Assembly (NCBI GenBank): GCA_051117335.1
Contig: JBNPEB010000009.1
Location: 138,058-202,057, forward strand
Direction of reading: 5' to 3'
Source of the DNA: Elainellaceae cyanobacterium
GTDB taxonomy: Bacteria; Cyanobacteriota; Cyanobacteriia; CAZCXK01
DNA: 64,000 nt
Shown here: positions 3,201 through 18,488 of the stretch, piece by piece
Layout of the letters: every line of letters begins with the position of its first letter
Position numbering within the stretch: position 1 is the stretch's first letter
Notes under the pieces: generated by a model
The model's input: only the letters and a program-made list of their open reading frames with translations
Databases searched by the model: none
Told to the model about the DNA's origin: nothing
Made by a program: the position numbers and the translations under genes

Positions 3201-4435
3201 GTTTGAAAACCCTGCAAGGGCATAGTAATTGGGTGTGGTCGGTTGCATGCAGCCGTTTATCAAAGAAAGCCGCTTCAAATGACACAGCATCTCAAAAGTC
3301 ACTTGGATTGATCCTTGCCAGTGGGGCTGATGATGAAGCGGTAAAATTTTGGGATCTGCAAACAGGTCAATGCTTAAAAACATTGCAGGGATATCGAGAT
3401 TATGCCTGGTCTATCTCATGGCATCCAAAGGGGCAAATGCTTGCGAGTGGTGGAGCCAGCCAGGTTGTGCGGATTTGGGATACCCACACGGGGCAGTGCA
3501 TTCGAACGCTAGAGGGGCATGATGACTGGGTCTATGCTGTTGCCTACAGTCCAACCTATGAGGAATTCTCAGACGAATTTGATTCCTTACTTGCTAGTGG
3601 TTCCCGCAACTATACGGCGATAGTATGGACGGTGCCAATCTCGGAAACAGGCCAAGAGCACGGGACAGAACCGCCCAAAAGCGAGTGTTGGAAAACGATT
3701 AAAGGATATCAAAATGTGATCTGGTGTGTGGCTTGGAATCCCAATCGACCTCTGCTTGCCGTTGGTAGCATGGACGGTGCGATCCGGTTTTGGGCAACCG
3801 ACACTGGACAGTGTATTCAGACACTGGACGAGCATCGGGGTTGGGTCATGGATATAGACTGGAGCACAGATGGACACATCCTTGCAAGTAGCAGTCAAGA
3901 TAAAACCGTCAAACTCTGGAACAGTCAGACAGGACAATGTCTCAACACCTTAGAGGGGCACGAGCTGGATATCTGGGCTGTTGCTTGGAATCCACACCAG
4001 GCATTAGTTGCAAGTGGTTCATTTGATAAAACGGTGAAACTCTGGAACCCTGATAGCGGTGACTGCCTGCAAACTTTATGCGGACATGCTTCTGGAGTTC
4101 TCTCGATCGCCTGGAGTCCAGACGGCAACACTCTGGCCAGTGGTAGTTCTGACAATACGATTCGACTTTGGAGTGTGGAAACAGGAAGATGTCTCAGAAC
4201 CCTTGAGGGGCACCATAATTGGGTGATGTCTGTGTCTTTCGCTTCAACGGGTGATGTTTTGGCAAGCAGCAGTCAGGATGAAACGATTCGACTCTGGGAC
4301 TGGAAGACAGGTCAGTGTTTGAAGGTGCTGAGAGCCACTCGCCCGTATGAAGGCATGAACATTACCGGCGTCACGGGGTTAACTGAGGCTCAAAAATCGA
4401 CGCTCAGGGCATTAGGGGCGATCGAAGTCAGTTAG
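275..4435 (+). CDS. STAND-type signalling NTPase: N-terminal SARP/BTAD DNA-binding domain, central NB-ARC/AAA ATPase, C-terminal WD40 beta-propeller repeats (AfsR-like)
   Basis: ORF 239-4435; ATG at 275 (MSLVLRIQVLGEL) preceded by GGAAGAG; SARP-like N-terminus; Walker A GIGGIGKT (nt 1189-1212); Walker B CLVVLDNLE; about 14 WD40 repeats (GHxNWVxSVAWSPDGxxLASGSxDxTIKLWD) from nt ~2440 to 4300. Confidence 0.85.
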   Translation: MSLVLRIQVLGELFITYGDRPLAGITTARSQALLAYLLLHRHTPQPRQRIAFDLWRDSVDAQARSNLRKELSYLRRDLPDANSFLLAETKTLQWSPTAPFMLDVLDFENAVNAAEQTTDLNQARSLLERAVQLYQGDLLPSCEDEWIVPERERLRQMRGRTVEQLIDVLKTQQDYRTAIGYAQQLLRIDSLNESTYASLMQLHSLSGDRASALQVYYQCMATLRDELGIDPSSTTRDLYQRILSEDEPSEESSIISVSPRSTSSAPYHDWGDAIDVSVFYGCDTERSILHQWIVHNGCRLVLLLGIGGIGKTALAVKLAQDVQAEFECVIWRSLRNAPPLETLLADLVLFLSNQQDTTADVERFIHWLRMRRCLVVLDNLETIFQAGDRAGQYRPNYEAYGELFRALGELQHQSCVILTSREKPAEIATLEGAAAVRTLQLSGSLDTAMALIESRNLFGSEADKQLLARQYGCNPLALKIVASSIQDLFDGDIDQFLQQNAIFFSGTRQLLEEQFERLSALEQTIMIWLAINREWTAIAELADDILSPVSRASLLEALQSLSWRSLIEKRSGYYTQQPVVMEYVTHCLVEQITDELLTKQLNRFNQYALIKTTANDYVRESQTRLILAEVAGKLRHAIGDSVRLEQQLWAILAVLHAEASARSDYAVGNLLNLCCYLEMNLTGYDFSNLKIRHAYLRKANLHHVNLQNSDLTHSTFSQMLGGVLAVAFSPSGQLLATGDNRGQVQVWRVADGQLLLTLADIPTNIYSVVWSPDGEILASGSGDHTIKLWPVSTGQCLKTLQGHTNWILSLAWSPDGKILASGSQDSTVRYWDTSTGQCLKRLNHAGAAWCVAWSPDSQILASGGTGGTINLWDTSGRPYLESFSGHRDVVWALDWHPEGQILASSSSDQSIKLWDISRLSTPRNSTKERLSKECLRTLNGHSNWVLSVAWTPDGQFLVSGSADHTIRLWDKQDGHCLKTLQGHSNWVWSVACSRLSKKAASNDTASQKSLGLILASGADDEAVKFWDLQTGQCLKTLQGYRDYAWSISWHPKGQMLASGGASQVVRIWDTHTGQCIRTLEGHDDWVYAVAYSPTYEEFSDEFDSLLASGSRNYTAIVWTVPISETGQEHGTEPPKSECWKTIKGYQNVIWCVAWNPNRPLLAVGSMDGAIRFWATDTGQCIQTLDEHRGWVMDIDWSTDGHILASSSQDKTVKLWNSQTGQCLNTLEGHELDIWAVAWNPHQALVASGSFDKTVKLWNPDSGDCLQTLCGHASGVLSIAWSPDGNTLASGSSDNTIRLWSVETGRCLRTLEGHHNWVMSVSFASTGDVLASSSQDETIRLWDWKTGQCLKVLRATRPYEGMNITGVTGLTEAQKSTLRALGAIEVS

Positions 4436-5146
4436 CTTGATGGTATTTCTTAATAAATCCTGCTATTCAAGTAATCTAGCTTTTTCGCCTTTTCCTAACC
4501 TTAGTCAATCAAGAGTTGACGCCTTGGGAGCGCTTTGGGAGCGCTTTGGGATCACGTGGCTAGTTAGGCTAATACAAATTCTAGAAAGTTAGCTGTAGGG
4601 CAAAGCGTCTCCTGCCAATCAAATTGAGTTGGCTAATTATAGCTTCAGTCTCCTTATTCGTTAATCTAATATGACCCTACGGCTCAGGTTTGTGAGGTGA
4701 AGCTCAAATTAAATCTAACCGAGGATTTTATGGACTTTTATTTGATTGATAAATGACTCATTTTAAGCTGTCAAAATTGATCTAAAATCCCAAATAAAAA
4801 GGCTTATTAATTAATTTATAACAGCAAAACTGCCCGCCAAATTAAGGTTTGACGGGGAATTTGGCATGTGAATATTCGAGGAAAACTTGGCTTTTTTCAA
4901 ATAGATAAATCATAGGTTTTCATGTCAGAGAGTTCTCAAAAAAATTTCGAATCTTCTCGATTTCTTCTCGATCTATTTCTAATCTGATAATCAAGAATCA
5001 ATCAAATACAAATTGATGTCTATTCTTGGGATAAATCAGATGAAAGATTTCTGAAAGATAATCCAGACTCAATTTAGAGAATGGATAGTTTCAAATCTTT
5101 TAGCTCCCAATATTAGGTATCAGTTCATCATCACTGGAGGAAAATC

Positions 5147-5314
5147 ATGATTACGAAATTCTCGAACAACTCTGCGACAGGTGATTTAGGCTCCATGCCG
5201 AATCGTAACTTAATGGAGAAATTCTCTCAAGATTGTACAGCCCGTCCAAAATTAGTTGCGCAGTGGGAACGCTTTGATAACCGATTGGTGTGTCGCTGGA
5301 CCTTACCGAACTAA
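5147..5314 (+). CDS. Small ORF (55 aa), hypothetical; below the ORF-track length cut-off
   Basis: ATG at 5147 with GGAGG 8 nt upstream; translation MITKFSNNSATGDLGSMPNRNLMEKFSQDCTARPKLVAQWERFDNRLVCRWTLPN; stop TAA 5312-5314; 98 nt upstream of the next gene. Confidence 0.3.
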   Translation: MITKFSNNSATGDLGSMPNRNLMEKFSQDCTARPKLVAQWERFDNRLVCRWTLPN

Positions 5315-5412
5315 CAGCAAATCGTTAAAGATCAGCAGGCTAATATCAAAATCCCGGAAAATAGTGCACTTTGAATTGCACTTGCATACGCGCTAATTTG
5401 GAGAATTGTACG

Positions 5413-5715
5413 ATGACCACACAATATAAACGATTTCTTTCATTGGGGATTGGCTTTGGAGTGCTAGCATTCGCCTCTCAAACTCAAATACCCACGATGA
5501 TGGCGGATAACTCGGCTCAGCTCGTTTTGAATGGGTTGACGATGAATGGACTGTCAATGAATGGACTGTCAATGAATGGACAGGACGTTAATCGGTCTAC
5601 CAGCCTTCGTCCTGATTGGATTAACCCTGCCACAACTGAAGCAAGGCTAAACCATCAAATGGTTGAGTCTGTCAGTTTGAATGGTGGGCAGCTCACCTTT
5701 CAGTTATCCGACTAG
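5413..5715 (+). CDS. Small secreted protein with signal peptide and tandem NGL(T/S)M pentapeptide repeats
   Basis: ATG at 5413 (MTTQYKRFLSLGIGFGVLAFA); 15-bp tandem DNA repeat aatggactgtcaatg at 5530-5589 encodes NGLTMNGLSMNGLSMNG; ends at TAG 5713-5715, in frame with the downstream ORF. Confidence 0.45.
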   Translation: MTTQYKRFLSLGIGFGVLAFASQTQIPTMMADNSAQLVLNGLTMNGLSMNGLSMNGQDVNRSTSLRPDWINPATTEARLNHQMVESVSLNGGQLTFQLSD

Positions 5716-5724
5716 TACGGTGAG

Positions 5725-6597
5725 GTGTGGGTGATGAACCGCTGTTGTTGGAACCTTATCTTTGCATTCGCTGGCGGAACAGCGCTTGGCTTGACTGCTC
5801 TGCTCGCAGGCTGGTTCAAAGGAACGGAAGTCACCAGCGACCTAACCAGGGGCGATCGCCCTAGTTCACAATCCCTCAAATCATCATCTGTTTTGCAAGG
5901 AGAGGCACTCATCGGAGCAACACTCACTAGCTTTGATGATCAGGGGCGATCGCTCACTCTCAAAATCGACGAGGTACACCCTGACCCCGAAGACATCGAC
6001 CGGGAGATCTATCTTTACACCGTTCTCTATCGGGGTAACGATAAGCAGTGGTACAACCTGTGTCAGCCTGATCGAGACGGTGTTGCACAAGCCATTCCCC
6101 TAACTGGACGGTGGGATGAGACAGGCGCGCACATCGATGATGGTAGCATTACGTTTGCCTGTACGAACGGTGCCCTCGCCAAGTGCGTGCGGTGGGGCTA
6201 CAAGCCCTGGGAAACGGTCAATGGCGAGTCACTTCGCACCTATCACCAGGCATGTACTCGCATGGTGCGAGCTGACTATTGCGGTAACGGCATTGGGCAT
6301 ACCCAGGATGGGACGTCGATTGATGTGTATGACCGACTCGGCATTCAGCTCCCTGTTGATGATGACGGCATGACCTTTGAAGCAGCATGGGATGCGGATG
6401 GTGCAGTATTTCTAAATCGCACGCGCTTTCCGGCGATCGCCCAACTCCGCGAGGAATGTCCTGAAAAATTAGCACAGATGCTTTACTTGCAGGAATCAGA
6501 CTCTCTAGACCCAGACTCTCTAGACATAGACTTTCTATCATCTATTCCCGACGCACTGCTATTCAACGACTCCTTCGTTCAAACAGGCACATTCTAA
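5725..6597 (+). CDS. ADYC-motif domain protein with N-terminal hydrophobic anchor
   Basis: Literal ADYCGNG motif (RMVRADYCGNGIGHTQDG); hydrophobic N-terminus LIFAFAGGTALGLTALLAGWF; GTG 5725 or ATG 5734 start; C-terminal 15-bp tandem repeat (DSLDPDSLD) at ~6497-6540. Confidence 0.55.
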   Translation: MWVMNRCCWNLIFAFAGGTALGLTALLAGWFKGTEVTSDLTRGDRPSSQSLKSSSVLQGEALIGATLTSFDDQGRSLTLKIDEVHPDPEDIDREIYLYTVLYRGNDKQWYNLCQPDRDGVAQAIPLTGRWDETGAHIDDGSITFACTNGALAKCVRWGYKPWETVNGESLRTYHQACTRMVRADYCGNGIGHTQDGTSIDVYDRLGIQLPVDDDGMTFEAAWDADGAVFLNRTRFPAIAQLREECPEKLAQMLYLQESDSLDPDSLDIDFLSSIPDALLFNDSFVQTGTF

Positions 6598-8343: not shown

Positions 8344-9660
8344 ATGGCAACGGTTACTATTCCTAGCGGACAACTTGAAGAGACACCGATCACCCTGGCT
8401 GATCCAGGTGACTCCTTGATTGTTGAAGGGCAAGTGATTGCAAATCCGGCAGTCATTGTCCAAGGAGATTTGAATCATATCTTTGTTCAGCAAGGTGGAT
8501 CACTTGAAAGTGAAAATGCCACCGTTCAGATTGAGGGCACCAATGCCTCGGTCGTCAACAATGGGGTGATTGATGGTGCTGTCATTGATGTTGTGAATGG
8601 AGGCCAAGCCTCAGCCGTCATTTTGAATTCGGGCACCATTATTACTCGGCAACGAGCCATCAACATGGGAGGGGCATCAACGGCTGTCGTGAACAACGGC
8701 AGGATTGTCCTTCGCGATGATCCCAGTGATGGCACTATCTATTCAGATGCAACAGCCAAGAGCTTTTCCATCGAGAATCAGGCGAGCGGATTGATTGATG
8801 TTGGGCAAGGCAACAACGGTGATGCTATTTCTTTAGAACTGGGTGAGATTGTGGACGGTTCGGTCGCCAACCAAGGGGAGATCTATGGGCGGGGAGGAGC
8901 CAACTTACCCCATGCGGCTGCGATCCGCCTCTACAAAGGAGCCAATATCGAGGGAACCTCAACGTTCAACGGCAGCATTTCAAACACAGGTCTGTTGTCG
9001 GCTGAGACCAATGCGGCTGTTTTGATTGACGAAGGAGTTTTTCTCAGCGGTGCGATAACCAACAATGGAGTGATTGAGGGTGGCGTGTACAAAGCCAATG
9101 GAGCCAAGCTTGCCATCGATGGCCGTCAAGCCGAAGACAGCCTGACTGTCGTCAACAATGGCACCATCAATGGCGATGTGCTGTTGACCGGGGGCGATGA
9201 TGTCTACCGCAGCCGTACCGGAAACATTGATGGCATGGTTGTTGGTGGGGGCGGCGATGACCTGCTCATTGGCTGCACCCGTGGTGAAACTCTCAAGGCC
9301 GGTAGCGGCAATGATCGCGTCAAAGCAGGCAGTGGGGATGACGAGATTTTCGGGCAGCGAGGGGATGACGTTATTGATGCCGGTCGTGGAGATGATGTCA
9401 TCGATGCAGGCAAGGGCAACAATGTGGTCTACGGCCGACAAGGCGCGGATGTGTTCCGCTTGTCAAAAGGCAAGGGAGTCACCGTAATCGAGGACTTCAA
9501 GATCAGACAGGGTGACGTGCTTGATGTGAAGCGAGGTGCAATCAACCGCGTTGAGTTTTCTCAGGTCGGGCGAGATACCCTTGTCAGCATTGGTAGGGAT
9601 GACCTCGCGATTTTGAGTGGAGTGAATGCAAATAGCCTTTCGGATAATGTGCTGGTTTAG
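8344..9660 (+). CDS. Secreted calcium-binding protein with RTX (hemolysin-type) nonapeptide repeats
   Basis: ATG 8344 with AAGGAGA RBS; N-terminal beta-helix-like G/N/V-rich repeats; C-terminal GGxGxDxL-type repeats (GGGGDDLLIG, GSGNDRVKAGSGDDEIFGQRGDDVIDAGRGDDVIDAGKGNN). Confidence 0.75.
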   Translation: MATVTIPSGQLEETPITLADPGDSLIVEGQVIANPAVIVQGDLNHIFVQQGGSLESENATVQIEGTNASVVNNGVIDGAVIDVVNGGQASAVILNSGTIITRQRAINMGGASTAVVNNGRIVLRDDPSDGTIYSDATAKSFSIENQASGLIDVGQGNNGDAISLELGEIVDGSVANQGEIYGRGGANLPHAAAIRLYKGANIEGTSTFNGSISNTGLLSAETNAAVLIDEGVFLSGAITNNGVIEGGVYKANGAKLAIDGRQAEDSLTVVNNGTINGDVLLTGGDDVYRSRTGNIDGMVVGGGGDDLLIGCTRGETLKAGSGNDRVKAGSGDDEIFGQRGDDVIDAGRGDDVIDAGKGNNVVYGRQGADVFRLSKGKGVTVIEDFKIRQGDVLDVKRGAINRVEFSQVGRDTLVSIGRDDLAILSGVNANSLSDNVLV

Positions 9661-9737
9661 CCAGTAGCTGTCAGAGAGTAAGCAACCATCTACTTCTAAC
9701 CATTTACTTCTAACCATTCATTACCAGGAGAATTCTC

Positions 9738-10352
9738 ATGAAAGTAAACAGACTATGGTCTGGACTGATCGTGCTGACCGTACTCGTGGGCAGTGGCTGC
9801 ACCCCTGGAGGGTCTGTATCAGTTGCTGGATCTAATCGTTCAGACCAATCCACAGCAAACGAACAGTCAGCTACAACCATTACCAGTTCTGATGGAATTA
9901 CCCAACTCACTATCCCTGCAGATTGGCACGACACATCAAACTCACTCACGGCTGAAAACTGGACTCTGTATGTGGGGACACGCGACAGTCGCGTTAGCGT
10001 CGCCGTTAAAACGATGTCCAAAGCCGAGGCTCCAGAAATTTCTGCGGATCTTCACGCCGGTGCGGCTTTGAATGCAGGTAAGGCTCCGTTTCAAGATGCA
10101 GAAGTGATTGAGCAAGACGTGCCTACTACGATCAACGGTTACTCTGCCGTAATGCACCAGGTTCGCGGCACGATGATGGACTATCCCATGGTAGCTGTCA
10201 CCTATTCCATTGAAACCCCTGAGCACTATCACAGTGCGGCAGTCATGATGTTGGCTAATGAGTTTGAGCGGCGGTGGCCTCAAGTAGAGCAGGTTTTGCA
10301 GTCGTTTGACGTGGTGGAATCCACTGAAGCCTCCGCAGAGCTATCTCCGTAG
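9738..10352 (+). CDS. Putative lipoprotein, hypothetical
   Basis: ATG 9738 with CAGGAGA RBS; signal peptide followed by lipobox-like LVGSGC (MKVNRLWSGLIVLTVLVGSGCTPGG). Confidence 0.55.
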   Translation: MKVNRLWSGLIVLTVLVGSGCTPGGSVSVAGSNRSDQSTANEQSATTITSSDGITQLTIPADWHDTSNSLTAENWTLYVGTRDSRVSVAVKTMSKAEAPEISADLHAGAALNAGKAPFQDAEVIEQDVPTTINGYSAVMHQVRGTMMDYPMVAVTYSIETPEHYHSAAVMMLANEFERRWPQVEQVLQSFDVVESTEASAELSP

Positions 10353-10392
10353 CAGTACCAGACATAACACAGCTAGACACCTAACATCCTGC

Positions 10393-10418
10393 ATCACAAG
10401 TAGCGAGCTACTTGTGAT
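10393..10418. other. Perfect 11-bp-stem palindrome atcacaagtag-cgag-ctacttgtgat (hairpin or protein-binding site) after the lipoprotein gene
   Basis: Read directly from the sequence; the T-tract expected for a plus-strand intrinsic terminator is absent. Confidence 0.3.
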
Positions 10419-10495
10419 CAGAAAAACCAGCTCACCATCATCTGTTCTTCAAGGAGGTGATGCCCTATGTGACTACCATCTGGGGTCTTTCCCCA

Positions 10496-10530
10496 ATCCA
10501 AAATCTAAAATCCAAAATCTAAAATCCAGA
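10496..10530. repeat. Heptanucleotide tandem repeat (AAAATCY)n, STRR-like short tandem repeat
   Basis: aatccaaaatctaaaatccaaaatctaaaatccag; a related aatccaaaatcgcaaatctaaaatcgag occurs at 54962-54990. Confidence 0.5.
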
Positions 10531-10570
10531 CTCCCATCACCAACCTATATTCACTAAAGGAGAAATCATC

Positions 10571-12577
10571 ATGGCACTCGAAGATCTCAGAGCAATTGAC
10601 TTTGATGACATTGTTTCCGTTACTGAAGCTGAAAACTTTGCCGAAAACATCACGAATGGTTCATTTCGTACTGCCGAAGACCTAGGCGATATCACCGATT
10701 TGACACGAGGGGTTTCTGGCACGATAGAAGCAAGGGCTGCAATCGGAAACGCTAGCGACTTTATTGATACCTACAAGTTCACCGTCGATGAGCCCACCCA
10801 ATTCAACGCGATTCTAGACACCCTCGATCCTCAGCGTCAGGAACAGGTGGTCCTGCGCCTGTTCAAAGACTTTAATGGGGATGGGGTTTTTAATTTGGAC
10901 GGCCCCACGAGATTCTCTGATTTGCTACAAGGCACAGCCTTTCGAGGTCCCGAAGATACTATTGCGTTTGATCGGCTCGATCCAGGGGAATATCTTCTAC
11001 AGGTCTCCAGCCAGGTTGTAAACGATCCGATCGACTATCAAATCAAATTCGAAGCTCCGGAACTGGATACCGCCCAGCTTAACCTTGACCTGAGAAATAT
11101 CATTGCTGAAGATGATTTGAGCAGTGGACAATCGCCCATTCGATTTGAAGCTGAAATTGCAGGACAGGTGTTTGAGCAACGATTTGAGCAGGATTTTCAA
11201 AGGACTATTTTACCTGTTCAAGTTGACCCGAACGAGCGGGCGTTTGATATCAAACTTCGAGCCTTCAGGCTAAATGCCAACGGGACTGAAAGTCGGCTTG
11301 ATTTGGATAAACGTCGGGGAGACCTGGAGTTTGATGCCACGTTTGATACGTTGGGTGAAAAGTTGTTCAAGATAGGAGCGGGGATTAACGTCAATGAAAA
11401 TCAGGGATTTGTACAGATTGCCCGTGGTGATGAACGCGGCAATGAAGTAAGAGACGGATTTCTCAGCTTGCGCGTGTCCTATGACACCACTGCCGATCTC
11501 GATAATCCAGGGAACGATACTCCTGGCAACGATGATCCAGGTAACGATGCGCCTCAAATCCCGGACCCAGACAGTGTTTTGATTATCGGGACCGATCAGG
11601 ATGATGTCCTTGATGGGAATGAGCGAGGGAACCGCATGTTTGGCCTCCAGGGTAATGACACTCTAAATGGCAACGGCGGCAACGATATCCTCCAAGGGGC
11701 AGGCAATCCTGAAATTGCCACGACTGTTGGTGAAGGAGAAATCGATCGCCTCAATGGTGGTGCAGGGCGAGATACCTTTGTCCTCCACACCAACCGGGGC
11801 ATGACCGTGCTCTACGACGAGGGCGATCGCCGCAATCCTGGCAAACAAGACTTCGCTATCATCGAAGACTTCAACAAAAATCAGGACACCATCGAGTTGG
11901 CAGGCTCCCGCGAGGAGTACTTCATTAGCCGCTCCAACGTACGAAAGATTGCTGATGGTCGCGCCATCTTCCGCGATACCGATAATGATGGTCGCCTCCG
12001 AAAAGGGCGTGATGAGCTGATTGCGGTCGTTGAAGGAGTCAACAATCTCTCTCTAAATGACCTAGAGTTTATCGACATTCCGGTCACGATCGGCACCAAT
12101 CAGGCTGAACGACTTCAGGGCACAGGTCAAGATGGCATTCTCAATGGTCGGGGTAAGCGTGACATTATCAGTGCTAAAGGGGGAAATGATATCGTCCTGG
12201 GCGGTAACGGCAATGATGTGTTGAATGGCGGCAGCGGCGATGACATCCTCGATGGTGGCAAGGGTCGTGACCAATATCGCGGACAGGGTGGCAGCGATGT
12301 CTTTGTGATTCGAGAAGGTCAGGGGCGCGATCGCATTCTCGACTTCAAAGATGGCGTGGATGTCATCGGTCTTGCCAAAGGGTTGGAGTTTGAAGACCTC
12401 AGCTTCAATCAGCAGGGCAACAACACCCTGATTCGCGTCGAAGACGAAAAGCTCGCCATTGTCAAAGGCGTTGCGGTTGATCAACTGAGCGCTGAAGACT
12501 TTGTCTCCGTTGACTACACCCGCTTTGAAGGAATGCGAGTGCCCGTCGTGTTGGGTGTTGAACCAACGGTGGTATAG
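10571..12577 (+). CDS. Large secreted calcium-binding protein with RTX-type repeats and PGND tandem repeats
   Basis: ATG 10571 with AAAGGAGA RBS; GTDQDDVLDGNERGNRMFGLQGNDTLNGNGGNDILQG and GGNGNDVLNGGSGDDILDGGKGRD beta-roll motifs; PGNDTPGNDDPGNDAP from a 15-bp DNA repeat near 11506-11553. Confidence 0.75.
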   Translation: MALEDLRAIDFDDIVSVTEAENFAENITNGSFRTAEDLGDITDLTRGVSGTIEARAAIGNASDFIDTYKFTVDEPTQFNAILDTLDPQRQEQVVLRLFKDFNGDGVFNLDGPTRFSDLLQGTAFRGPEDTIAFDRLDPGEYLLQVSSQVVNDPIDYQIKFEAPELDTAQLNLDLRNIIAEDDLSSGQSPIRFEAEIAGQVFEQRFEQDFQRTILPVQVDPNERAFDIKLRAFRLNANGTESRLDLDKRRGDLEFDATFDTLGEKLFKIGAGINVNENQGFVQIARGDERGNEVRDGFLSLRVSYDTTADLDNPGNDTPGNDDPGNDAPQIPDPDSVLIIGTDQDDVLDGNERGNRMFGLQGNDTLNGNGGNDILQGAGNPEIATTVGEGEIDRLNGGAGRDTFVLHTNRGMTVLYDEGDRRNPGKQDFAIIEDFNKNQDTIELAGSREEYFISRSNVRKIADGRAIFRDTDNDGRLRKGRDELIAVVEGVNNLSLNDLEFIDIPVTIGTNQAERLQGTGQDGILNGRGKRDIISAKGGNDIVLGGNGNDVLNGGSGDDILDGGKGRDQYRGQGGSDVFVIREGQGRDRILDFKDGVDVIGLAKGLEFEDLSFNQQGNNTLIRVEDEKLAIVKGVAVDQLSAEDFVSVDYTRFEGMRVPVVLGVEPTVV

Positions 12578-14156: not shown

Positions 14157-14504
14157 TCAGATGTAAAGAATCTGGTTTTCCATTTCATTTGCTGTAGTGC
14201 TGTCCAAAATTGTAAGCAATCTCCGTACAATTTCTGTGTAGGGCTTTCTGACCGCAACGATGATTCCAGAATGGGATTTACCTGTATTAAAGTACTCCCG
14301 CGCAAGATCTTCAAAGTCAGTACGATTGTGCGTTAGGATAGCAGCACCTTGACCGGTTGCGTACTTTAGTTGCTCAGCATCTGTCTTGCCAAGTTGTCGA
14401 GCTTGTTGTGCTGTTGTGGCATTAAAACCACGAGATTGCAAAAGACTTGCAACAAGAACATCAACATCTTCATCTAGATAAACATGAATGAAAATATCAT
14501 TCAT
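14157..14504 (-). CDS. DUF5615-type PIN-like protein (putative toxin)
   Basis: MNDIFIHVYLDEDVDVLVASLLQSRGF ... ILTHNRTDFEDLA matches the DUF5615 pattern; its start overlaps the upstream DUF433 gene stop by 4 nt. Confidence 0.7.
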   Translation of the reverse strand: MNDIFIHVYLDEDVDVLVASLLQSRGFNATTAQQARQLGKTDAEQLKYATGQGAAILTHNRTDFEDLAREYFNTGKSHSGIIVAVRKPYTEIVRRLLTILDSTTANEMENQILYI

Positions 14505-14782
14505 AAATTTCGTACTCGTGGGTCAATTAGCTCATCAGGAATGCGATTGCGCTCAATGTATTCGTTGATTTCTGCTTGATGGTCTAGATAATAGCTGAGT
14601 GCATCAAAGACTTGGGATAAACCGAGGTGTGGTAATCGCTGAGGAATTTCCTCAGGTGAAACTCCAATACGCCACATCTCCACAATTGCTCTAACAGGTG
14701 TACGAGTACCTTTGATAATCGGTTCACTACTCAATATTTCGTCATTTTTGACAATGTGGCAATGCTCTGTTGCTTGTACCAT
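14501..14782 (-). CDS. DUF433 domain protein (putative antitoxin partner of DUF5615)
   Basis: EPIIKGTRTPVRAIVEMWRIGVSPEEIPQRLPHLGLSQVFDALSYY matches the DUF433 signature; operon-coupled to the downstream DUF5615 gene. Confidence 0.7.
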   Translation of the reverse strand: MVQATEHCHIVKNDEILSSEPIIKGTRTPVRAIVEMWRIGVSPEEIPQRLPHLGLSQVFDALSYYLDHQAEINEYIERNRIPDELIDPRVRNL

Positions 14783-15859
14783 ACTGATTTCTCCAAAGGA
14801 ATAAATATCAATAAACTCGATTCCATTTTAGCTTGATAGGAAATTCCTGAGCCTGCTCAATCGGTTAGTGCAAATTGGTCAGAAACCCACCAAAACCAAG
14901 GGTTAAACTAATATTCTCAGCGTTGAATACGCCTACGGACGGGAAGACATGCATCTAAATCAACTTCGTATGCAATGCACAATTCGCGAATATTTTTACG
15001 AAGACCAACAGCCCAATTGACCCGCTCTCCGATTGAAAGTGGTTCAATGTATCGCATCCTATCCGGCTATCACAGGCTCAAATGAAATCGGATGAAATCG
15101 TACTTTCGGTCAGGACTGGCAGCGGATCGCACTAAAGGATGATGCGAGTTATCTCTCTAATCTAAGGTCTAGCGATAGATTTCAGTTCTCTTATAAGCAT
15201 GTCTGTGACATGCAAGATCACAGATATTAAGAGTCCGGTGCATAAATATAGAGCACCAACAATTGTATCCTCTGGCAGGATAACAACCATTCCAGCAACT
15301 ATAAGTACTAGTGAAATAAACCAGAAAAAAAGAGTAGACATTGTGCAAAGCTCAACGAAGAAAATGGAAAAACCGCATTTGAGAGTAGCTTGATAGCAAC
15401 ACGATCTGCATATGGTGATTGCCGGCTAACTATTATTAGGCTGAAATTTTCCGCATAAGATCCTACAGCGGGTGGATAGGCAGAGTGATTCAGCATAACA
15501 CCCCAAATTTTATGCTTATGCAGATGATTTCTGCATAATATGCCGCTCAAGCAGATATAGCCAGAATCTTTCCGCATATTTTCAGATTCGTTACGGAGGT
15601 GAGCGAGTAGACTGTTAGTGCGATCGCCAAAGACCGGTCCTAGAGGACTAGAGGACCATCGCTCCCACAATTCCATTAAATCTTTCTAATGAGCCAAAGT
15701 ACGGTTGTATTTCTTTCACGAATACACTATTCTTTGCCATTAAGCGCTCAAACAGCGCAGCGCTCCCTAGAAGTGCCGCAAACACAACTAGGAAGCTAAC
15801 CCCTGACCCTGTCTCAGGCAGAATCAGTGGCTTTAGGCATTTTAGCTCCTATCGCCATC

Positions 15860-17160
15860 CTCCTTTGCCATGTCAAGTATCAGGGTGGCGTGTTTGTTTG
15901 AGCGCTCCTTATCAAAGCAAAAAGGAGCGTACTTCATGGTTTATCCACCCAACCCGCCCGGTGGGGCGGACAGTTCGTCCCGCCCGGATGACGATCGCCA
16001 TACCCTACGCATTATTGCAGTGGGGTCACTCACCGTTGTCAACCACTATGTGATGCAGATGTTTCAGCTTGACTATGCCGAACCCGGTGACTGGTCAAAG
16101 CCGTTGCCCACGGTGAATCCGAATGAAGTGATGCGGATTCTCACCAAACGCATTCGGGGGTTGAATACGTAAAGCCCAAAAACGCTAGGGTGCGTTGCTG
16201 TCAAGTGATGCTGTTGGCGAAACATTGCTTCATACGCTGAAAGTCTTGATACTACGCTGTCAGTCGTAAAAGCAACTTGTAGTTTTGTAACATAAACAAC
16301 CGTGGAATCAGCATTTGAGGTGTGAACAAATATTTCGCCAACAGCGTCCCTGCGTCAACCCAATCTACGGCGGAGTGTGCGATCGCACTCGACCAGGAGT
16401 TGGAACGCCGGGGCCACCGTTTTTCCCGCTATGTGGATGATGTGGTCATTTTGGTCAAATCAGCCCAAGCAGGTAGGCGAGTGTTCGCGTCAGCGTTGCG
16501 AAGCAATAGGCGAGTGTGACTCGCTATCTGACCCAGGTGTTACGACTAAAAGTGAACCCGAAGAAAAGCCAGGTTCGTCGGATTGAGCGATTGGAGTACT
16601 TGGGATTTACGTTCCAGGGAATCCGCATTATTTGGTCTGAGCGAGCCTTCCAGGACTTCAAGCACCGCTTGCGGGAGTTAACGTCGCGGCGATGGCGAGT
16701 GTCAATGGACTATCGGCTGAAGCGGATAAGCCTCTATTTGCGGGGTTGGATGGGCTACTTTGGGATCTCCCAACGGTATGGGCCAATTCCCGAACTAGAT
16801 GGGTGGCTGAGGCGTCGGATAATGCTTCGCAACGCTGACGCGAACGGATGTGCTATTGGAAACAGTTGCGTAGACCAAGGACGCGCATTGGCAACCTGCT
16901 CAAGTTGGGAACACCGAGGCAACATGCCTTCTCGACGGGCTTGAGCCGGAAGGGCTATTGGCGGTTGTCGCGGACGTTGGCGACGCAGACGGGAATGACC
17001 GATGAGTGGTTAGAACAAGAGGGATTGCTCTCGATTCGCGACCTCTGGATGAAAGCCCAGAGTTACGATGAGTAGTCCACTAATTTGTCTAGCAGTTAGG
17101 TTGAGAACCGCCCATTGCGGAGCCGCACGATGGGTGGTGTGGGAGGGGGGATTCGTGAGG
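15860..17160 (+). mobile_element. Decayed, 5'-truncated group II intron remnant
   Basis: RT/maturase fragments in three different frames (see pseudogene 16322-17075); GC-rich hairpins upstream (cgctcctt...aaggagcg at ~15908-15936; ggtggggcgg...cgtcccgccc at ~15950-15985) and downstream of the ORF; no intact RT domains 0-4. Confidence 0.6.
16322..17075 (+). pseudogene. Group II intron reverse transcriptase/maturase, frameshifted fragment (RT domains 5-7 plus X/thumb)
   Basis: Frame A: RYVDDVVILV (YxDD motif); frame B: LKVNPKKSQV..YLGFTF and LRGWMGYFGISQ (maturase X motif); frame C: CYWKQLRRPRTRIGNLLKLG ... SIRDLW; at least two frameshifts. Confidence 0.7.
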
Positions 17161-17387
17161 ATTCTCCCTATCCCGATTATGTGCGTGATCGCTTGCTTCA
17201 AGGAATTCATGAGCATGGTGCGTTCCCAAAAATCTATCGGTGGGGTAGTAGGCGTTGCAGTGGGGAACGCACCCTACAAGATCGGCGATCGCACTATTGG
17301 AAAGGGATGCTCTTCAGCAATCATCCTAGCGAATGCATCACCTACTTGCAGCCTACCTCCCTGAAACACCTATTGAGCCTCAATGTT

Positions 17388-17843
17388 TTACTTCTGCTGC
17401 TGAAGCACACGCTTGACATTCCCCAGGCAGCAAGTTCCTTGAGGATTATTCACTTCGCAACCGCAACGCTTTGCGTGGACATGAGCTGTGATGCTTTCAA
17501 TGGCCGTGCTTTGCCCAGAAAAGGCCAATTCGTTCTGCAAACGCTGTCGAGTCCATCCGAAACAATAACAAACAGGAACATCATCTCCCTCATCTTTCTG
17601 GAAGACAGGCACCTTCACATCTTCAGTCGTAAACATCTCTTCTGGACTTGAAAAGTAGACTACTGAACACTCTGGGGCATCGCAAAAGCGGTAATTGCTG
17701 TTTGGGTTTAATCGCTCTAGGGCAGAGGGTTTGAGCAAACTTTTTAAGGTCATCAACTGGATAGGCTTGCCGCGAGTATGACTTTCTGGACAAGCACACA
17801 AATGCTCGTCAGAAGACGATGGTGTGAAACAACCTTGACTCAT
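17388..17843 (-). CDS. Cysteine-rich protein (about 11 Cys; CxC, CYC, CGC...NPxGxCC motifs), putative metal-binding, hypothetical
   Basis: ATG at 17843, 17 nt downstream of the merF-like stop; MSQGCFTPSSSDEHLCAC ... VPVCYCFGWTR ... AKRCGCEVNNPQGTCCLGNV. Confidence 0.5.
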   Translation of the reverse strand: MSQGCFTPSSSDEHLCACPESHTRGKPIQLMTLKSLLKPSALERLNPNSNYRFCDAPECSVVYFSSPEEMFTTEDVKVPVFQKDEGDDVPVCYCFGWTRQRLQNELAFSGQSTAIESITAHVHAKRCGCEVNNPQGTCCLGNVKRVLQQQK

Positions 17844-17860
17844 GGCAATACCCTCGAAGA

Positions 17861-18079
17861 TTATCGGTGCCGCTGACATTGCCGACGATATCGCATGTAA
17901 GACCACAGACTAAGCCCTATCAGCGCCCCTAATGCAGGTAATAAAACATAATCGAGATAGCCTATCCAGGCACTTAACCCTATGGTAGTCAAGATCACCA
18001 CTAACACGGGTGTGAAGCAGCATAGAGCCACGATGGTCGTGCCTGTGATGCTAGTCCATAGTGCGGCTTTAGGCCCCAT
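17861..18079 (-). CDS. MerF-like two-TM metal (mercuric ion) transport protein
   Basis: MGPKAALWTSITGTTIVALCCFTPVLVVILTTIGLSAWIGYLDYVLLPAL closely matches the MerF pattern (vicinal CC in TM1; LDYVLLPAL in TM2). Confidence 0.6.
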   Translation of the reverse strand: MGPKAALWTSITGTTIVALCCFTPVLVVILTTIGLSAWIGYLDYVLLPALGALIGLSLWSYMRYRRQCQRHR

Positions 18080-18488
18080 CGGAAATCTCCTTTACCACAA
18101 CACATTCATTATTAGGAGCGGCTTGGCTAAGGTTACTTTGGCATTGATCAATCAAGGGTAAAAGCTCATCCCGTAAGACTTGTAACTTTTGGATTTGGTC
18201 TTCTAGCTGTCGCACCTTGGCTGTTAAACGGCAATGCATCGCTTCACAGGTCAAGGTTTGCCCATCCTGAAGAACCAGAATTTCCTTGATTCCATCCAGA
18301 CTCAAGCCCAAGGCTTTGACGCGAGTGATAAACCGCAACCGAGCGATATCCTGCTCGCTAAATAGTCGGTAACCTGCTGTCGTTCGCCGAAGCGGCGGTA
18401 TCAGGCCAATGCGCTCATAGAAGTAAAGCGTTTGAGGATTGACGCCCAGTGTTTGAGAGGCTTCACCAATTTTTAGCAGCTTACTCAA
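18069..18488 (-). CDS. MerR-family metal-responsive transcriptional regulator
   Basis: N-terminal HTH LLKIGEASQTLGVNPQTLYFYERIGLIPP; coiled-coil dimerisation helix; Cys at positions 81, 86, 116 and 129, comparable to Tn501 MerR C79/C114/C123; TTG start at 18488 with GGAG RBS. Confidence 0.85.
   Translation of the reverse strand: MSKLLKIGEASQTLGVNPQTLYFYERIGLIPPLRRTTAGYRLFSEQDIARLRFITRVKALGLSLDGIKEILVLQDGQTLTCEAMHCRLTAKVRQLEDQIQKLQVLRDELLPLIDQCQSNLSQAAPNNECVVVKEISDGA

Follow-up and report, generated by a model that had tools for sequence, protein, structure and literature searches.

Group II introns of class C (IIC), among them GsI-IIC of Geobacillus and the integron-associated S.ma.I2 of Serratia marcescens, encode a reverse transcriptase (RT) with a thumb/X domain but without an endonuclease domain. 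IIC RTs such as that of GsI-IIC are proficient template switchers. A second class of elements that concerns us here is the small dispersed repeats (SDRs) of cyanobacteria. Elhai and colleagues (Genome Res, 2008) reportedly described SDR1-8 of Nostoc punctiforme and its relatives as hairpin-forming sequences of 21-27 nt that are precisely inserted, and they are said to have proposed RNA intermediates for them. To our knowledge, mobility has been claimed for no element smaller than the SDR-type repeats, and we know of no established mechanism for it. According to PMC4390886, the insertion point of SDR5 lies between nucleotides 3 and 4 of the HIP1 palindrome, and PMC5861425 states that SDRs were not found outside Nostocaceae. 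Here we describe a locus in which the two classes meet. It lies in a stretch of 64,000 nt from an Elainellaceae cyanobacterium (contig JBNPEB010000009.1, positions 138,058 to 202,057; hereafter the window). Positions 16388-17178 of the window are very probably a dead, 5'-truncated copy of a IIC intron, whose reading frame was broken by two inserts of one dispersed mini-repeat.

The class C intron remnant

The RT/maturase pseudogene occupies 16388-17075 on the + strand. Motifs of group II intron proteins were found in three open reading frames (ORFs) that belong to three different + frames: YVDDVVILV in the ORF 16322-16519, LRGWMGYFG in the ORF 16516-16944, and CYWKQLRRPRTR...SIRDLW in the ORF 16848-17075. 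The RT/maturase was recovered by tblastn in the window as three pieces in three frames. An earlier inspection of the letters and their translations (the sequence-only reading) had proposed three motifs in three frames and at least two frameshifts; both hold, and the frame changes are exactly two.

The joined protein matched Pfam RVT_1 at positions 137-205 of 205 (E 4.9e-8), Pfam GIIM (E 1.4e-16), and the NCBIfam model TIGR04416, "group II intron RT/maturase", at positions 198-352 of 353 (E 1.9e-30). It aligned with residues 240-446 of the 451-aa LtrA of an S. marcescens plasmid intron, with 40% identity. RT5-7, the thumb/X domain and the C-terminal DNA-binding region are present, RT0-4 are absent, as the sequence-only reading had proposed, and the ORF stops about 10 aa past ...SIRDLWMKAQ. 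Among 1427 homologues, the best (P0001) was 94% identical at the amino acid level. The homologues carry PF00078 (RVT_1) and PF08388 (GIIM) only, with no endonuclease (HNH) domain, and the closest solved structures are those of the GsI-IIC RT (E 1.3e-118) and, next, of the Eubacterium rectale IIC intron RT. The RT in the window is a fragment of a IIC family member, not a complete member.

P0001 is located on a JGI metagenome contig (L001) that holds a complete intron. Upstream of its RT ORF, L001 matched the Rfam families RF02001 group-II-D1D4-3 (134 bits) and RF01998 D1D4-1 (57 bits), and the 5' start of its intron, GTGTACGCCC, is conserved. DNA alignment and word-7 blastn equated L001 1508-2253 with window 16388-17179, and the rest of the L001 intron, including its 5' half, gave no match anywhere in the 64 kb by word-7 blastn. 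Domains I-III (5' GUGYG start, exon-binding sites), which are present in L001, are absent from the whole window, and L001 domains I-IV had no match upstream of 16388. A likeness between 15820-15885 and L001 domain I in a first MAFFT alignment was spurious. Of an intron of ~1960 nt, the remnant keeps the final ~745 nt, to which the inserts add 46 nt. The sequence-only reading had drawn the element from 15860 to 17160. Its right-hand part is intron, while 15860-16387 is unrelated, with intron homology spanning 16388 to about 17178.

Unlike complete IIC introns, the remnant retains only the 3' 38%, with RNA domains V and VI intact but without domains I to IV(5') and RT0-4, its 5' junction is lost, and its ORF is frameshifted twice. 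Lacking domains I-III and RT0-4, it would be able neither to splice nor to move, and as an intron remnant it is ordinary. The RT of L001 (813-2173), the "intact" closest relative, is also split, into overlapping ORFs 813-1085 and 1049-2173, as would result from a frameshift close to the N-terminus or from a sequencing error.

Downstream of the RT stop codon, the sequence folds into two hairpins. Domain V (17107-17138, +) shows the canonical layout: a tetraloop hairpin whose 9-bp lower helix contains CGC and is separated by a 2-nt bulge on the 3' side from an upper helix of 4 bp. In domain VI (17141-17174, +), the branch-point A bulges out at 17170, and the inferred 3' splice site follows 8 nt later. 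The 2-nt bulge and the bulged A are as in described IIC introns. These two are the GC-rich hairpins of the sequence-only reading, located after the ORF. We gathered 80 related intron loci from metagenomes and analyzed an alignment (A3) of 71 distinct 3' ends with RNAalifold. Both helices were recovered, with compensatory double changes at 11 of 24 pairs (5 of 13 in domain V and 6 of 11 in domain VI). A custom covariance model (R1), whose 71 seed sequences include that of the window, scored the window domains V/VI at 68.2 bits (E 1.4e-15) as the single match in 64 kb. Domain V is 93-95% identical to that of annotated group II introns of Klebsiella and Serratia plasmids, the value for the S. marcescens plasmid intron being 93%. 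The Rfam family RF00029 was blind to the whole of this IIC lineage even at permissive E (window 17103-17186; L001 2177-2260), where the custom model gave 63-84 bits.

The 71 copies share a conserved ...CCCGATT end followed by a variable 3' exon, the inferred 3' splice site of the window lying after 17178. In the relatives, a hairpin and ...GTT stand upstream of the intron and RRRY downstream. This hairpin/GTT^RRRY setting, in which described IIC introns likewise sit, is the IIC/attC-type arrangement, and it places the window 3' splice site at the same position. The window 3' exon begins with ATGTGC, as in several relatives. Many relatives (L047-L126) occupy sites of the form RYYYAAC...hairpin...GTT^RRRY, resembling integron attC, and the homologue on S. 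marcescens pSCH909 (L134) lies between the aadA6 and aadB integron cassettes, beside intI1. Three loci (L060, L088, L099) have two intron ends each, suggesting tandem copies.

The decayed group II intron of the sequence-only reading was borne out by the Pfam and NCBIfam RT matches, the homology to L001 and the covariation in domains V/VI.

Two copies of a mini-repeat and their relatives

Each of the two frame changes carries one copy of the 22-mer TGCTTCGCAACGCTGACGCGAA, at 16484-16505 on the - strand and at 16823-16844 on the + strand. No other copy was found in the window within 3 mismatches, and the chance expectation of the 22-mer in the window is 0. The frameshifts are not random indels; each is a copy of the same 22-mer. 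The decayed ORF of the sequence-only reading stands, but the frameshifts, which it had taken as decay, are two insertions that it missed.

Mini-insert A (TATTGCTTCGCAACGCTGACGCGAA, 16484-16508, - strand) replaces the "AT" of a conserved Met codon in GTG AT GG; the site is empty in L001 and in a further relative, L003. On the sense strand of the ORF, the empty site reads GTG AT GGCGAG and the filled site GTG TTCGCGTCAGCGTTGCGAAGCAATA GGCGAG. Mini-insert B (TAATGCTTCGCAACGCTGACGCGAA, 16820-16844, + strand) replaces 2 nt at CGGA TN CGGATG (codons R-I-R-M), and its site is empty in all four compared relatives, reading CGGAT T CGGATG in L002, with one-base variants in L001, L003 and L004, against CGGA TAATGCTTCGCAACGCTGACGCGAA CGGATG in the window. 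Both insertions exchange 2 target nt for 25 nt of the form "TA(T/A) + 22-mer" with an exact 22-mer; their orientations are opposite and their spacing is 339 nt. The net gain of 23 nt at A shifts the frame and leaves a TAG at the junction, and the same gain at B shifts it a second time. With 23 nt deleted at both sites, the frame runs on without a shift between the breakpoint and the stop codon, and a single TAG is left at a Met conserved in the relatives. Target duplication was absent from both inserts, and the short direct repeats that flank the two sites are already present in the empty copies. Neither loose patterns nor a structure-based scan detected diverged family members elsewhere in the window.

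Related introns carry inserts of the same kind. L004, from Pantanalinema, has the identical 25-mer at the same site A codon, inside a IIC RT gene 67% identical to P0001; L001, L002 and L003 are nearer to the window RT (85-94% aa) than L004 (67%). Around site A, the window and L004 agree at 60-67% of the flanking positions but at 25 of 25 positions of the insert, for which P is about 5e-5 if it had been inherited alongside the flanks. This identity points to independent use of one target. L004 has a second copy, inverted relative to the first and shorter by one base; its target, GGCA T. CGGATC (site C), is similar to site B. The two inserts of this Pantanalinema rosaneae locus (6041-6063 and 6179-6202, minus then plus, 141 nt apart) add 45 nt together, and the frame is regained after about 50 scrambled codons.

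L002 has a 26-nt variant, TAATGCCTTCGGCAACGCTTCGCGAA, at GTTC TT TGACACC, and L003 a 28-nt variant at another GTG AT GG. The four intron copies with inserts show five distinct insert sites, all with empty counterparts elsewhere, and no mini-insert was found in the 80 metagenomic, mostly non-cyanobacterial intron relatives. Variant inserts are 24-28 nt long, and six variants share a fold of a 4-bp and a 3-bp mini-hairpin, with compensatory changes in hairpin 1 from TTGC/GCAA through TGCC/GGCA to GCCC/GGGC. The L002 region 3600-6030 is heavily wrecked, with ISL3 transposase genes upstream and an internal deletion between two GATGGCGAG repeats, and an IS3-family element lies between the end of its RT ORF and domains V/VI (5940-6023).

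An exact-match scan with a 20-nt core over 185,579 species genomes gave 43 genomic loci, at least 39 of them cyanobacterial. Two of the matches, one set in Myxococcales and Streptomyces, could be due to chance. No viral copies of the core were found. Okeania genomes have many copies of the 22-mer each, within a conserved composite repeat of ~90 nt, AAAAAGCGGTCGTT[22-mer]ACGCGACAGCGGAACGGAGTTCTCTCTTCGCAGCTTCCCGTAGGG (L005-L046). The module that flanks the 22-mer there looks like a relative of the mini-element in inverted orientation, which suggests a nested insertion. Solitary exact copies, mostly preceded by TA, were found in Pantanalinema, Scytonema, Dolichospermum, Anabaena and Trichormus. 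In Scytonema tolypothrichoides, a DUF433 gene is interrupted by 23 nt, and their removal restores the ORF (Pfam E 5.4e-23). The same 23 nt interrupt the start of a gene in two uncultured genomes, where removal restores the N-terminus; we take this gene to be PIN-like, the fragment in L018 being too short for Pfam. The interrupted-gene loci are L006 5059-5083, L008 4086-4107 and L018 132-153. Because 23-nt copies break the DUF433 and PIN-like genes, the mini-element is not restricted to introns.

We conclude with high confidence that the inserts belong to a family of 24-28-nt two-hairpin elements dispersed across several cyanobacterial orders. In all likelihood they reuse the short targets GTG AT GG and AT N CGGAT, without target duplication.

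Among described elements, the inserts appear to match SDR-type repeats best, at the level of general description rather than of the SDR1-8 sequences. Their length falls in the range of 21-27 nt (a 22-nt core, with 25 nt in and 2 nt out; variants of 24-28 nt). Like SDRs, they have filled and empty sites that speak for recent insertion, are precisely inserted at short targets, and are nested or composite in Okeania; they also appear to be dispersed and hairpin-forming. Unlike SDRs, they occur inside protein-coding sequence (intron RT, DUF433) and outside Nostocaceae (the Elainellaceae-like window, Pantanalinema and Okeania), contrary to the statement in PMC5861425. We found no literature linking SDRs with group II introns. 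Repetitive extragenic palindromic (REP) sequences and REPINs are also short, palindromic, dispersed and found in inverted pairs, but the mini-element has no GTAG/CGTC tag at its ends, no REP-associated tyrosine transposase (RAYT) in the window, and inserts within genes, and its pairs are not the mobile unit. With miniature inverted-repeat transposable elements (MITEs) such as cyanobacterial Nezha it shares being non-autonomous, dispersed and, probably, mobilised in trans; it differs from them in being 3-10 times smaller, in replacing 2 target nt, and in lacking terminal inverted repeats of the usual length and a target-site duplication.

Truncation of the intron and origin of the inserts

The most likely history of the locus has three steps. 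The intron copy would first have lost its 5' part, either because reverse transcription aborted in the course of retromobility or because the DNA was later rearranged at the adjacent junction with a HIP1 site and a MITE-like element (described below). Abortive reverse transcription from the 3' end is the classical route to 5'-truncated copies of retroelements. The already useless intron ORF would then have been hit twice by the mini-element. The mini-element, finally, would have been mobilised in trans by a function encoded outside the window.

For the insertion itself we favour a DNA-level, hairpin- or sequence-guided cut-and-fill, to which we give about an even chance. An RNA- or RT-mediated route is unlikely: it keeps a share of the probability because the inserts concentrate in intron ORFs, and it is less favoured because both orientations and non-intron targets occur. 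A functional tie of the 23-nt element to IIC introns, by which it would be inserted by the template-switching RT of the intron or would preferentially target intron DNA or RNA, is improbable.

One rival makes the intron RT itself the inserting enzyme, which during retromobility would switch templates to a small hairpin RNA and then return. It would explain the pile-up in intron ORFs: a structure-based scan of ~113 kb (the window and ten loci) placed all 6 elements inside IIC intron ORFs, which make up less than 5% of that sequence. Set against this are the two orientations within one intron, the same element in the DUF433 gene, the PIN-like gene and Okeania and Nostocales repeats unrelated to introns, and the lack of inserts in the 80 mostly non-cyanobacterial relatives. 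We consider this route quite improbable.

Inheritance of the site A insert within an intron sub-lineage, as an old conserved part of the ORF region and not a mobile repeat, could be argued from the identical 25-mer at the same codon in the window and L004. Site A is, however, empty in the closer relatives L001, L002 and L003, the insert is fully identical between flanks that have diverged, it destroys the frame, and the same sequence is found in non-intron genes, all of which makes inheritance very unlikely. Ordinary pseudogene decay, with random small indels and 22-mers inverted by coincidence or by local templated (quasi-palindrome) mutation, is less probable still. In an ORF that was already non-functional any indel would be tolerated, and two inverted 22-mers 339 nt apart are what a strand-switch event could yield. 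Decay does not account for the 20-mer in 43 loci of other genomes, for its recurrence at one and the same codon of an intron that belongs to another genus and is 67% identical, or for the second L004 copy at a different site and spacing, and the chance expectation of the 22-mer in the window is nil. That the inverted pair forms the ends of a REPIN/MITE-like composite, mobilised as a unit by a RAYT/Y1 transposase, is hardly credible: the minus-then-plus order recurs in the window and L004, and in L131 a paralogue of the adjacent small ORF has a Y1_Tnp gene in its vicinity, but what separates the copies is collinear intron ORF, relatives have empty sites, the spacings are unequal (339 and 141 nt), and there is no GTAG/CGTC end tag, target duplication or Y1 gene in the window.

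Several points weigh against the preferred reading of a truncated IIC intron broken by two mobile mini-inserts. Both routes proposed for the 5' truncation fit the data. The mobilising enzyme was not found: tblastn, for example with a Y1_Tnp protein, detected no Y1/RAYT transposase and no second RT in the window. The source genome has two copies in 64 kb and is itself outside the list of genomes matched by the 20-mer. The mini-hairpins have energies of -3.6 to -5.4 kcal/mol, not significant against shuffles, and the variants are few. The ends of the inserts can be placed only to within 1-2 nt, and no single simple cut-and-paste rule yields the AT-to-TA change seen at their junctions. The Rfam group II RNA families, lastly, had no match in the window at gathering thresholds or at E<=10. 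The sequence-only reading had named RT and RNA models as its test; the RT models match, the Rfam RNA models do not. The Rfam miss arises because RF00029 is blind to this lineage, missing domains V/VI of the full-length L001 too, and we do not count it against the intron.

Surroundings of the remnant and meaning of the inserts

The region is a patchwork of a small-ORF unit, a MITE-like element, a HIP1 site and the truncated intron. The small-ORF unit (15658-16180, + strand) contains a conserved 78-aa ORF (MVYPP..., 15937-16172). Its 30 homologues, with E-values as low as 4.5e-44, come from Elainellaceae, Nodosilinea and Leptolyngbya; several share one metagenome-assembled genome (MAG), and the nearest are in Elainellaceae MAGs. 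The ORF belongs to no Pfam or NCBIfam family. At the DNA level, the unit of ~520 bp is repeated at 78-85% identity in six loci (L127-L132) with unrelated neighbours, among them HicAB, Y1 transposase, amylase and SBP-VWA genes, and consists of a conserved leader of ~280 nt and the ORF. Possibly the unit is a small gene module that moves or duplicates. The sequence-only reading had dismissed an ORF at 15870-16172 as non-coding intron RNA, which is refuted by this conserved gene. Homologues of the 78-aa ORF and the closest relative of the RT are on different contigs. A 158-aa gene beside paralogues of the small ORF was considered as the counterpart of the CopZ-like gene of the window, which would have provided an "empty site" for the patch, and was rejected for lack of similarity.

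The MITE-like element (16206-16350, ~145 nt, no strand assigned) lies between the small-ORF unit and the intron, outside the latter. Its 16-nt perfect terminal inverted repeats, GATGCTGTTGGCGAAA, at 16207-16222 and 16333-16348, occur nowhere else in the window, and its DNA fold has z = -3.1. A counterpart on the Acaryochloris marina plasmid pREB1 (171454-171592), located between insertion sequence (IS) elements, is 71% identical with conserved termini. The HIP1 palindrome GCGATCGC (16379-16386, no strand assigned), one of 85 HIP1 sites in the 64 kb of this HIP1-rich cyanobacterium, abuts the 5' breakpoint of the remnant, and L001 homology starts at the next bases. Upstream of the patch are a DUF433/DUF5615 toxin-antitoxin-like pair (14157-14782) and, further upstream, RTX-repeat proteins (8344-12577). 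Downstream (17388-18488) are genes for an iron-sulfur metallochaperone with a CopZ-N-terminal-like domain, a small membrane ORF and a MerR regulator. The mobile-element setting proposed by the sequence-only reading agrees with these observations, the remnant lying in a patch rich in such elements.

The intron remnant has no likely function and marks only past retroelement activity in this accessory, mobile-element-rich patch. The locus has also lessons for annotation: what looks like a frameshift in a cyanobacterial gene may be a 23-nt insert, computationally removable, RF00029 misses domains V/VI of this IIC lineage, and a small conserved gene should not be dismissed as intron RNA. Together with its relatives, the locus supplies clean pairs of filled and empty sites, the exact change at insertion (2 nt to 25) and reuse of the same codon in two genera, and it would extend the host range of SDR-type repeats beyond Nostocaceae. 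If the link to introns were true, intron copies would be a natural record of the movement of the smallest mobile elements, and its mechanism would be testable with defined hot-spot targets and matched filled and empty sites. The mini-inserts add something real, if modest, to what is known of elements of a poorly understood class.

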